Virus record (IMG/VR): IMGVR_UViG_3300025276_000022 | Length of the DNA stretch: 64,000 nt | Origin: a virus | Strand: one strand, 5' to 3' | Shown here: positions 18,544 through 24,482 of the stretch, one piece after another | Position numbering within the stretch: position 1 is the stretch's first letter | How the letters are laid out: each line of letters opens with the position of its first letter | The notes under the pieces: model-generated | Seen by the model: only the letters and a program-made list of their open reading frames with translations | Databases searched by the model: none | What the model was told of the DNA's origin: nothing | Program-made: the position numbers and the translations under genes

Positions 18544-18800
18544 TGACAATCGATTATGCATCACTTCCAACAGGTTTATTCTCGGAAGACACGGACGTAG
18601 ATAATGCATATATATTATACGATCACACAGGCGGATTAATCTGTGTGTACGGTGACGCAGAACGGGCAATAGATCGTGCCGCAGAAGAGATCACCAAAGA
18701 TTACCAGTATGATACTGTACATGTTGATGTGTTCGATTGGGCAATCATGGTACGAAGTTCTATTGGAGAAATTACCATTTTAGTAGAAAAGATCTATTGA
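18543..18800 (+). CDS. Hypothetical protein
   Basis: GAGG ribosome-binding site; coupled to the upstream stop. Confidence 0.6.
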   Translation: MTIDYASLPTGLFSEDTDVDNAYILYDHTGGLICVYGDAERAIDRAAEEITKDYQYDTVHVDVFDWAIMVRSSIGEITILVEKIY

Positions 18801-18836
18801 CAGACCAGATCCTTTTTGTTATAATAGCCGAACAAT

Positions 18837-19142: not shown

Positions 19143-19194
19143 GCCTCTTGACAGACCAAGAAGTTTATAGTATAATAGAGTCTTAGTAAGTAAT

Positions 19195-19378: not shown

Positions 19379-19633
19379 ATGAAACCTGATACTAAATGGT
19401 ACCCCGACAATCTTGACTGGTACGTTAAATGGGCTGCGACTGTTTGCATCCTCACTGCTGTAATGTTTCGACAAGCAGGGCCCGATTGGAGATTGTACGA
19501 TCTTGCTGTGGGATTTGTCGGTACAGGACTTTGGGCGTGGGTGTCAGTGATGTGGGAAGACCGCGCACTGATTATACTAAACTCAGTTATGATGGTAATG
19601 CTGGGATCAGCACTTATGAGGGAATTTTTATGA
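19379..19633 (+). CDS. Three-TM membrane protein
   Basis: DWYVKW..W.DRALIILN pattern with hydrophobic helices. Confidence 0.7.
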   Translation: MKPDTKWYPDNLDWYVKWAATVCILTAVMFRQAGPDWRLYDLAVGFVGTGLWAWVSVMWEDRALIILNSVMMVMLGSALMREFL

Positions 19634-20010
19634 GTCAGTTAATGTACGCACACACTCCACCTTACACCAATGAGACTGTAGAGTTCGAAAGGTATTCTGA
19701 TGGGGTCTCTATGAGATCTGCCGCAGATATAGGTACCATCGATTACAAATTTAACGAAGGTAAACTCATAGAAGAGTTTAAGGATTACATCGACTCTACA
19801 TATAACGCACACTATTGCACTTCTGGTATTCAATCCAGTGAAGTCATTATTGATCGCGGGCATGGTATGGGTTTCTTTCTAGGTAATGTGGATAAGTATA
19901 ATGCACGTTATGGAAACAAGGGTGATGTATCGGATCACCGAAAGGATCTTGTGAAGGTTTTGCATTATGCTCTATTAGCATTACACACCCATGATTTGGA
20001 GAATACGTAA
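19630..20010 (+). CDS. DUF3310-like protein (T7 gp1.7 nucleotide kinase-like)
   Basis: HY..GFFLGNVDKY..RYG.KG..DLVKVLHY. Confidence 0.7.
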   Translation: MSQLMYAHTPPYTNETVEFERYSDGVSMRSAADIGTIDYKFNEGKLIEEFKDYIDSTYNAHYCTSGIQSSEVIIDRGHGMGFFLGNVDKYNARYGNKGDVSDHRKDLVKVLHYALLALHTHDLENT

Positions 20011-20013
20011 AGA

Positions 20014-20213
20014 ACGAGTCTGGTAACTCGGACTAGTAGTATGTTGTTCCTTCTACGATGAGAATGAGGATTAGTTACCTCAAATAGGAACACGACACCA
20101 AGTAGGTCGGTAGCTGGTACCGTTAGTCAGAAGCGCTGGAGACCGTGCGAGGTAATAGTTATAAAGATAGGCTATCTTTAGCTAAGGTCAAAGAAGGGGT
20201 TTGTGGCACCAGA
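20014..20213 (+). ncRNA. Putative structured ncRNA(s) in the tRNA cluster
   Basis: No long ORF; several helices; CCA ends at 20100 and 20211. Confidence 0.5.
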
Positions 20214-20435: not shown

Positions 20436-20520
20436 ATAAATCATAGTCTCGGAATGACTTAAAACTTGCACTGGTCGTTACGCCCGTCACCTAAGTATGT
20501 GAAAAACTGCTTAATAATTA

Positions 20521-20614: not shown

Positions 20615-20980
20615 ATGAAAAATATCTTACTCGTTATAATGATCGCTCTGATCGTAGCATCTTTTGCATCTGCACAGAGTTTTAAATTCGCCAAGGATGA
20701 TCATAAATTCTTAGTAAAGGAAATTGAAAACCTAACACCGGCCGTTGAATTCATCCTATTAAAAACTGATGAAGAGTATGATGCAGCACGTAAAGAGTTC
20801 ATAGGCAGTGGTTGGAACAACGTAAGTGCATTCACTCGATGGAATGAAACCGAAGGTACGTGTAAGATATATGTTAAAGATCCATTGTGGAAGTACGAAC
20901 CAGAACTTATAGGGCATGAAGTTGCTCATTGTATATGGGGACGGTTCCATCGTGGTAAGAAAGGAGTGAGAACTAATTAA
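20615..20980 (+). CDS. Secreted HEXXH zincin-like protein
   Basis: Signal peptide ending ASA; GHEVAHC..G.FH. Confidence 0.65.
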   Translation: MKNILLVIMIALIVASFASAQSFKFAKDDHKFLVKEIENLTPAVEFILLKTDEEYDAARKEFIGSGWNNVSAFTRWNETEGTCKIYVKDPLWKYEPELIGHEVAHCIWGRFHRGKKGVRTN

Positions 20981-21074
20981 GGGTCTGATTCCCCTTTTGA
21001 AATAACTGAATCAGTGGTGCACCCTTTGCCAGAGAGTCTTGTTTCTCTCTTTAATCAACAAGCAAGTGGTACCA
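20979..21074 (+). ncRNA. Two tandem H-type pseudoknots
   Basis: AAGGG-T-CTGATTC-CCCTT..GAATCAG-TGGT and AGAGAG-T-CTTGTTT-CTCTCT..AAGCAAG-TGGT. Confidence 0.65.
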
Positions 21075-21091: not shown

Positions 21092-21166
21092 TGGGGTGTC
21101 GCCAAGTGGTTAAGGCCTCGGGTTTTGATCCCGATATCGGAGGTTCGAATCCTCCCACCCCAGCCA
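21092..21166 (+). tRNA. tRNA-Gln (UUG)
   Basis: TCGGG-TTTTGAT-CCCGA, CCA. Confidence 0.96.
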
Positions 21167-21226
21167 ATATAATTTTCAAAAGACTTGACAGACGTATAAG
21201 TAAGTGTTACAATAGCTGTATTAAAT

Positions 21227-21344: not shown

Positions 21345-22760
21345 ATGAAGTATAAAGTACTACTATTATCATCATCTATTTTCCTAGCATCGTGTGGTGG
21401 AGGATCTACTAGTTCCCCTGAACCGATTGCTGTTATTCCCCCAGCACCTACTCCTCTTGAGATATCTATTGGTGAGTTAAGGGATATAATGAACGTGACC
21501 TCTCCTACAGGTTCGTACGAAGGATACATTCTCCCAGAAAGTGATGACTTCTTCAACATCCCCCAAGATCCTAGCAACCCTGTTACTTCTGAGAAAGTAG
21601 AGTTAGGTAAGTTGCTTTATCATGAAACTGGTATGACCTCGTCTGAGACTAGCAAGACCGATATGGTCGACACGTGGTCTTGTGCATCATGTCACAATGG
21701 CCAGAACGGATTCAAGTCTGGTATTCGCCAAGGTATTGGTGAAGGTGGTGTCGGTTTTGATCACCGTACTTTCGCAGAAGGTATGGAAGAACTTGCAGAC
21801 ATACAACCACTAACATCTCCTACTGTATTGAATAGTGCATATCAAGAAGTGATGTTATGGAACGGTCAGTTCGGTAATGTGATGGGCGGTATAGTGAATG
21901 TGGGTATTGACCCTGAACGTCACTTCACCGAAGGTACCCCGAAGGAAGCAAACCTACGACAGTTGTCTGGTCTTGAAACACAAGCAGTTGCCGGTCTAGG
22001 TGTTCACCGAATGGATGTTACTAGTGATGAATCCATCCTTAGTAACAACGAAACCTATCAGATGATGTTTGAGGCTGCATACGGAACTTCACGACCGACC
22101 GATATGTTAGAGGCAGCATCCTTTGCGATTGCCGCATACGAAAGAACTATCCTTGCAAACCGTGCACCATTCCAAACGTTCCTACGTGGAGATGAGACTG
22201 CACTGTCTATAGAGGAAGTAGAAGGTGCAAAAGTATTCTTCGGTAAAGGTAACTGTGCTGGTTGCCACAACGGCCCTGCACTATCATCACCTGTAGGATC
22301 TATGGCGCAAGAAGTGTTTATGACTCTTGGTTTCCATGACTTGGATATGTGGGAAGATACTGTCGGTGAAGTTGGCCAAGCGGTAAAAGAAGGTCGTGCT
22401 GGATTTACTGGTGACAGTATGGAAAAGTTCGCGTTCAAAGTACCGCCACTTTACAATCTTATAGATACTACTGTATTCGGTCATGGTGGTTCATTCACCA
22501 GTGTTGAAGATGTGGTAAGATATAAAGTTGCCGCAGTTCCACAACATCCACAAGTTGAAACGACTGATGTGGACTACCGTTTTGTTCCATTAGATTTGAG
22601 TGAAGAAGATATCTCAAACTTGATTGCATTCTTAGAGCAGAGTTTGTATGATCCAGATTTGATGAGATATGTACCAGACACATTGCCTAGTGGTAACTGT
22701 GTAACCAACAATGACCAGCAGTCACAAGACGACTTAGGATGTACTGACAATGGATTATAA
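21345..22760 (+). CDS. Di-heme cytochrome c peroxidase/MauG-family lipoprotein
   Basis: Lipobox LASC; NP..EKVELGKLL; CASCH and CAGCH heme motifs; FKVPPLYN; GHGG. Confidence 0.9.
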   Translation: MKYKVLLLSSSIFLASCGGGSTSSPEPIAVIPPAPTPLEISIGELRDIMNVTSPTGSYEGYILPESDDFFNIPQDPSNPVTSEKVELGKLLYHETGMTSSETSKTDMVDTWSCASCHNGQNGFKSGIRQGIGEGGVGFDHRTFAEGMEELADIQPLTSPTVLNSAYQEVMLWNGQFGNVMGGIVNVGIDPERHFTEGTPKEANLRQLSGLETQAVAGLGVHRMDVTSDESILSNNETYQMMFEAAYGTSRPTDMLEAASFAIAAYERTILANRAPFQTFLRGDETALSIEEVEGAKVFFGKGNCAGCHNGPALSSPVGSMAQEVFMTLGFHDLDMWEDTVGEVGQAVKEGRAGFTGDSMEKFAFKVPPLYNLIDTTVFGHGGSFTSVEDVVRYKVAAVPQHPQVETTDVDYRFVPLDLSEEDISNLIAFLEQSLYDPDLMRYVPDTLPSGNCVTNNDQQSQDDLGCTDNGL

Positions 22761-24384: not shown

Positions 24385-24482
24385 TTACGTGACTAATAAA
24401 GTGAAATGAGTCACCCATCGCCCTTGACAAATCTGTCCAAATCCTTTATAATGTAGTATATTAAATTGAATTGGATTATATT

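Follow-up and report, generated by a model that had tools for sequence, protein, structure and literature searches.

A conserved module predicted to fold as an H-type pseudoknot in the tRNA cluster of marine T4-like phages

The DNA analyzed here is a 64,000-nt stretch of an IMG/VR virus record (IMGVR_UViG_3300025276_000022), referred to as the window. Its source is a T4-like phage; the window encodes a gp43-type DNA polymerase, a gp41-type helicase, and a ribonucleotide reductase. In GenBank, the phage closest to it is "Phage C48C1," of the uncultured type, which shares 73% polymerase identity, compared to approximately 46% for cyanomyoviruses. Eight tRNA genes are located at 18.8 to 24.2 kb on the + strand of the window, and two pseudoknot-like units lie among them, between an ORF and tRNA-Gln(UUG) (Table 1). 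Unit 1 reads AAGGG-T-CTGATTC-CCCTT-(11 nt)-GAATCAG, followed by TGGTGCA. Unit 2 reads AGAGAG-T-CTTGTTT-CTCTCT-(9 nt)-AAGCAAG, followed by TGGTACC, and its second stem (S2) includes one G-U pair. An earlier note on this DNA had given these positions and this architecture, and both proved exact when checked against the sequence. The TAA stop codon of the upstream ORF (20978 to 20980) overlaps the first two bases of the 5' strand of stem 1 (S1a) in unit 1. A CGAG...CTCG element at 20014, previously thought to be related to the units, is a plain hairpin that the family covariance model does not match. It occupies the same post-stop position as the pseudoknot and is not a family member.

Table 1. 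Features of the pseudoknot locus and its surroundings in the window
Feature	Position	Strand	Basis or remark
Hairpin CGAGT-CTGGTA-ACTCG	20015-20030		5 nt past the stop of the DUF3310 ORF (19429-20010)
Upstream ORF, 121 aa	20615..20980	+	Without Pfam or PHROG family
Unit 1 pseudoknot core, 36 nt	20979..21014	+	Sequence, descriptor, covariance model R1 (63.6 bits), covariation
Unit 1 parts, 5' portion	S1a 20979-83; loop 1 U 20984; S2a 20985-91; S1b 20992-96	+	
Unit 1 parts, 3' portion	Loop 3 20997-21007 (11 nt); S2b 21008-14	+	
Unit 1 tail UGGUGCACCC	21015..21024	+	Includes the family-constant UGGU
Unit 2 pseudoknot core, 36 nt	21031..21066	+	Sequence, descriptor, covariance model R1 (46.8 bits)
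Unit 2 parts, 5' portion	S1a 21031-36; loop 1 U 21037; S2a 21038-44; S1b 21045-50	+	
Unit 2 parts, 3' portion	Loop 3 21051-59 (9 nt); S2b 21060-66	+	
Unit 2 tail UGGUACCA	21067..21074	+	Perfect 8-nt palindrome
tRNA-Gln(UUG)	21092..21166	+	Starts 25 nt past S2b of unit 2

Several other elements of the cluster were recorded. Promoters that match the sigma-70 consensus perfectly are found at 18797-18825, 19148-19176, and 24424-24452 (12/12), and a near-perfect one at 21185-21213 (11/12); promoters directly precede tRNA-Glu, tRNA-Asn, and tRNA-Ser, and another lies after the tRNA-Ala region. Given these perfect or near-perfect promoters, the cluster seems to be divided into a number of strong early units. 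Upstream of tRNA-Pro, the non-coding leader (20447-20520) shares homology with the sequence found behind the pseudoknot in three other loci (L109, L266, and L272). This leader may be a further structured RNA, as it holds a conserved AAGNA...UGCUU segment that resembles a hairpin. Finally, an intact di-haem cytochrome c peroxidase gene of the MauG family, with a lipoprotein-like start, occupies 21345-22760 (Pfam CCP_MauG, 83.5 bits) and is unusual cargo for a phage.

A strict descriptor (S1 of 5 to 6 bp, loop 1 of 1 nt, S2 of 7 bp, no junction base, and loop 3 of 8 to 12 nt) matched only the two units in the 128 kb that make up both strands of the window. First-order Markov shuffles yielded 0.75 matches per window, so a single match alone is not significant. 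Two adjacent matches sharing the TGGT tail are significant, and the decisive evidence comes from the comparison with relatives. Nested folding gave z = 0.03 for this region, a value that is uninformative because pseudoknots are absent from that model. Covariance model R1, run on the window, detected the two units only and nothing at 20014.

Relatives were gathered through loci encoding homologues of the upstream ORF and by an exact 18-mer search, which together returned dozens of IMG/VR contigs with the same module and obvious compensating changes. In an alignment of 62 distinct units (A2), 97.5% of the cells pair, and both sides change in 10 of the 13 pairs, including 6/6 pairs of S1 and 4/7 pairs of S2. 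The covariation score of this alignment equals 0.408, in contrast to 0.129 for shuffled alignments (0/500 reach 0.408) and at most 0.104 for slid partners. Both stems of both units thus covary in A2, and the selection on structure proposed in the earlier note is borne out. Among the relatives, S1 occurs as AAGGG/CCCTT, TAGGG/CCCTA, AAGGA/TCCTT, and TAGAG/CTCTA, and S2 as CTGATTC/GAATCAG and CTCATTC/GAATGAG. The S2 of unit 2 is CTCGTTC/GAACGAG in relatives versus CTTGTTT/AAGCAAG in the window, with two pairs compensated. In the tandem loci L271 and L318, the second unit (TTGGG-T-TTCATTC...GAATGAA) compensates the otherwise constant C9-G38 pair.

Non-Watson-Crick core pairs in A2 are all G-U on the + strand and never A-C, which indicates an RNA read from the tRNA strand. 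Of the former suggestion that the units are co-transcribed with the tRNAs, the shared strand is confirmed by these mispairs, and a joint precursor we infer. The invariant core of the alignment comprises the loop 1 U and, in S2a, U10, U13, and U14, with the partners A37 and A33. Among unpaired bases, A24, A25, A28, and A29 of the A-rich loop 3 and the UGGU that follows S2b are invariant in A2.

The compact H-type pseudoknot with CPK-1 geometry that we predict for each copy is well supported by these comparisons. The CPK-1 class combines a loop 1 of 1 to 2 nt spanning a stem 2 of 6 to 7 bp with stems stacked without a junction base (PMC11262651). All 62 units have an S2 of 7 bp and a single U as loop 1, and S2a abuts S1b in every unit (junction loop of 0 nt). 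S1 measures 5 to 7 bp, with loop 3 shortening from 11 to 9 nt as S1 lengthens, so that their sum is constant. The lone U of loop 1 spans the deep groove of S2, and S2 is stacked straight onto S1. The module therefore agrees with the class in its stem lengths, the size of loop 1, the absence of a nucleotide between the stems, and the covariation of both stems. The likeness to the T-even gene 32 pseudoknot seen at the outset also holds, as that knot belongs to the same CPK-1 class (PMC11262651; T2 gene 32 knot, PMC3014915).

The single helices are predicted to be modestly stable, at -2.4 to -6.8 kcal/mol each, and a nested alternative for unit 1, AAGGGT/ACCCTT, reaches -11.2 kcal/mol in the window. 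This helix was rejected as the family fold: it is present only in the subgroup to which the window belongs and is uncompensated in L002, where the change from AAGGG/CCCTT to AAGGA/TCCTT keeps S1 of the knot and breaks the alternative. Separately, the unit at L039:4552-4599 joins the 5' half of an AAAGGG variant to the 3' half of an ATAGGG variant, leaving an S1 of only 4 bp, and resembles a recombinant of the two.

Pattern searches extended the family. A pattern applied to viral contigs fixed parts of S2 and the tail only, and although S1 pairing was not imposed, S1 and S2 were both perfect in 25 of 33 distinct matches. When bacterial and archaeal genomes were scanned in the same way, 0 of the 118 matches listed were perfect. 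For metagenomes, the pattern placed no constraint on S1, on the central S2 pair, or on the sequence beyond TGGT. At least four contiguous S1 pairs were found in 57/57 distinct matches, including the new S1 variants GTAGG/CCTAC, CAGGA/TCCTG, CCAATG/CATTGG, and CGAGGG/CCCTCG, and the free S2 pair was G-C in 34, C-G in 18, U-A in 3, and U-G in 2 matches. In total, the module was found in approximately 100 distinct contexts from IMG/VR and marine metagenomes; a lack of structural homologs was among the refuting findings named in the earlier note. Among GenBank phages, the module is present in C48C1 only. A scan of Rfam 15 to E = 10 gave no + strand match at 20979-21074, and no paper describing the motif was found in the literature; a 2023 catalogue of 10,006 unnamed IMG/VR candidates (PMC10690425) could contain it. 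The module is a small RNA of approximately 45 nt that is uncatalogued.

The range of the module is a single clade of uncultured marine T4-like phages. Covariance model R1 detected one locus, of one or two units, in C48C1 and in each of four genomes that are 83 to 93% complete, and in near-complete phage genomes the locus always lies inside the tRNA cluster. The 99 distinct contexts comprise 77 single units and 22 tandems. Downstream of the module are tRNA-Gln (36), tRNA-Arg (15), an intrinsic terminator (26), or other sequence (22, including some ORF starts), with tRNA-Gln or tRNA-Arg at a distance of 25 nt in 51/99 contexts. Upstream, a tRNA lies 4 to 16 nt away in 24 contexts (Pro, 14; Leu, 6; Asp, 2; Trp, 2), and the rest are mostly preceded by ORFs, which belong to three different families. 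In 32 of 82 distinct contexts, a long ORF ends within S1a, its stop codon and the stem sharing bases in the form UAA-GGG or UAG-GG. One further arrangement was seen at L028:4170-4340, where a 47-codon ORF between tRNA-Pro and the pseudoknot ends at a UGA inside S2a, so that its translation must unfold the knot.

The sequence of the module is kept while its neighbors change: the 18-mer from S1a to S1b is identical among phages whose neighboring protein is only 50 to 66% identical. Tandem duplication has produced at least two different types of second unit. The tandem units have diverged in both stems and repeat with a period of 52 to 53 nt.

Right after each knot comes a constant, single-stranded tail, UGGU(R)CC. 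UGGU is present in all units found, including loci fetched without a tail constraint; as most search patterns fixed TGGT, this invariance is partly a matter of ascertainment. The NCCA end that the earlier note had assigned to both units is confined to the window's own subgroup, with tails elsewhere reading TGGTGCCCAG and TGGTACCGG. Unit 1 carries UGGUGCCCAG in most relatives and GGUGCACC, a perfect 8-nt palindrome, in the window subgroup. Unit 2 carries UGGUACCG in most relatives and UGGUACCA in that subgroup. The tails of the family are quasi-palindromic (GGUGCC, GGUACC), with predicted self-duplexes of -9.7 to -16.1 kcal/mol. Across five phage genomes, no conserved site that would mark a phage-encoded target matches the reverse complement of the tail; four of the five contain the element's own complement only, and C48C1 has one extra exact match. 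Behind a normal unit at L308:1097-1160 stands a diverged second knot, AGACG-GT-CTTGTTC-A-CGTCT-(16 nt)-GAGCAAG, with the tail UGGGGG, from which the family is probably wider than TGGT-anchored searches show.

The reading that we favor, tentatively and with somewhat less than even confidence, is a small stable RNA cut from the tRNA transcript, in which a nuclease-resistant knot presents a conserved docking tail. The module would be transcribed inside a polycistronic tRNA/ORF precursor, and RNase P, by cutting at the tRNA that lies 25 nt further on, would define where the pseudoknot-bearing RNA ends on its 3' side. In other phages, the terminator that replaces the tRNA would end the transcript instead. 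The product would be either a stable RNA of short length or a structure that closes the upstream RNA at its 3' terminus. Within it, loop 3 would lie in the minor groove of S1, bracing the knot as a rigid, nuclease-resistant scaffold. The invariant bases of the loop and tail may then form a docking site for a specific partner; the candidates are a protein and the tRNA 3' terminus ACCA, to which UGGU is complementary. Release as a free RNA is predicted from the rules of tRNA processing. In contexts with an upstream ORF, nothing marks a 5' cut, and there the knot may simply remain the 3' end of the mRNA.

The main rival to a gene-like RNA gives the knot a purely cis-acting role, as an end protector or insulator that serves as a spacer or as the untranslated 3' end of the ORF before it and has no function in trans. 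We regard this as unlikely but as a serious contender, and the nuclease block raised in the earlier note stays live with it. The knot would stop 3'-to-5' exonucleases, or RNase J heading 5' to 3' toward the tRNA, after RNase P or RNase E has cut the tRNA operon transcript. Such a role would suit the stop codons of three unrelated ORF families, which fall within the first 10 nt of the knot, and the RNase P site or terminator that usually follows within approximately 25 to 45 nt; the plain hairpin behind the DUF3310 ORF sits in the same post-stop position. However, there is one locus per genome only, although the tRNA cluster has several ORFs. In the 24 contexts where the module stands 4 to 16 nt behind a tRNA there is no message to protect, and in 26 contexts a terminator hairpin already follows. 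In addition, a steric block leaves the conserved unpaired bases, the tail, and the repeated duplication unexplained. A gene-like RNA with a specific partner is favored over a generic structural stop because the unpaired bases are conserved at tRNA grade, and because the module occupies one locus per genome, is independent of its neighbors, and has been duplicated repeatedly.

A more specific function in trans, to which we assign a small probability, is that the module binds tRNA 3' ends or, alternatively, that GGURCC tails join knots into dimers. In the former case, UGGU would pair with the ACCA-3' of uncharged tRNAs that have discriminator A, which would let A76 stack below loop 1 on the C9-G38 pair. 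T-box discriminators and RNase P L15 use this geometry: the UGGN bulge of the former and the GGU of the latter bind tRNA 3' ends, and the UGGU that adjoins the helix end here could likewise pair with ACCA-3'. Unlike the T-box and RNase P, the module has no Stem I, specifier, antiterminator, or catalytic core. Whether a tail reads UGGUGC or UGGUAC does not correlate with the end, GCACCA or GUACCA, of the tRNA-Leu in the phages. If true, binding of tRNA ends would let the phage sense, shield, or sequester them, for example against host toxins that attack CCA.

It is improbable that the module is instead a processing signal for RNase P or RNase Z, in which the stacked helix of 12 to 13 bp would pass for a tRNA acceptor/T arm and a cut in loop 1 or after U39 would separate the upstream mRNA from the tRNA. 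S2 (7 bp) and S1 (5 bp) do add up to a 12-bp tRNA minihelix, and loop 1 is an invariant U, the N-1 base with which RNase P cleaved H-type pseudoknot substrates most rapidly (PMC12710915). Cleavage of those substrates depends on an RCCA directly 3' of the helix (PMC12710915), but this position reads UGGU in all units, and the ACCA and GCCA of the window lie 4 to 13 nt further on and are not conserved. The module therefore shares the single-stranded loop 1 and the favorable N-1 base with RNase P pseudoknot substrates and lacks their adjacent RCCA. The tRNA-like decoy once suggested for these units finds no support either: there is no cloverleaf, neither ARAGORN nor the tRNA and TLS models of Rfam match here, and most relatives are without NCCA.

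We see only a slim chance that the module acts as an anti-defense decoy, either a mimic of type III antitoxins of the ToxI, CptI, and TenpI class or a sponge for a host RNA-targeting defense protein. Similar to the module, type III antitoxins are small RNAs that contain a pseudoknot (PMC4627078; PMC5772629). Single-stranded tails and the occurrence of tandem copies are further features common to the module and ToxI, CptI, and TenpI. A ToxI unit is 36 nt long and thus equals the 36-nt core found here. The independent duplication of units is expected if more inhibitor is selected, and the module is confined to phages. However, those antitoxins are near-identical repeat arrays beside a toxin gene, whereas the module is a single unit in 77/99 contexts, its tandem units have diverged, and a toxin gene is absent nearby. 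The Rfam families of type III antitoxins are unmatched to E = 10, and the analogy with ToxI drawn in the earlier note fails on these counts. Strong conservation across the entire phage clade is also unlike escape-type acquisitions.

A translation-linked role, as a frameshift, readthrough, or termination signal of the upstream ORF or as a ligand-sensing knot of the preQ1-I kind, is very improbable: the overlap of stop codons with S1a and an A-rich loop 3 resembling that of recoding and preQ1-I knots speak for it, but about a quarter of the contexts follow a tRNA rather than an ORF, an Rfam riboswitch match is absent, and a fully paired S2 with no junction loop leaves no ligand pocket. Frameshifting was rejected because the knot begins at the stop codon, without a 5- to 9-nt spacer or a conserved slippery heptamer, and a Shine-Dalgarno-like S1a is ruled out by variants such as CCAATG and GGTCGG.

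Two known RNAs of T4-like phages invite comparison. Species 1 and 2 stable RNAs of T4 (rnaC and rnaD) are non-tRNA RNAs in a T4-like tRNA cluster and are co-processed with tRNAs. They differ from the 45-nt knot in length (139 and 119 nt), and rnaC has a tRNA-like T arm. By-eye comparison with the 71-kb region of T4 revealed no motif common to rnaC or rnaD and the module; the setting alone is shared. The T2/T4 gene 32 operator pseudoknot, the prototype of the CPK-1 class (PMC3014915; class, PMC11262651), likewise belongs to a T4-like phage and is an H-type knot with a very short loop 1 and coaxial stems without a junction base. However, its sequence is unrelated, and the module lies elsewhere than in front of gene 32 and lacks the A/U-rich zone for gp32 loading. 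The module instead resides in a tRNA cluster, often at an ORF 3' end, and carries the constant UGGU(R)CC tail. With a position between the 121-aa ORF and tRNA-Gln in the window, and usually tRNAs or terminators downstream in relatives, it does not behave as a translational operator of the gene 32 type.

Ever since T4 RNA C and D were described, the roles of the additional small RNAs in phage tRNA clusters have been a standing question. The module described here is tractable, with approximately 45 nt, a covariation-supported fold, a conserved tail, one locus per genome, and a clear phylogenetic range, and it merits a new RNA family model. It offers a well-defined case in which to ask why tRNA operons of phages include RNAs other than tRNAs, a question to which end protection, processing control, tRNA-end binding, and counter-defense are candidate answers.
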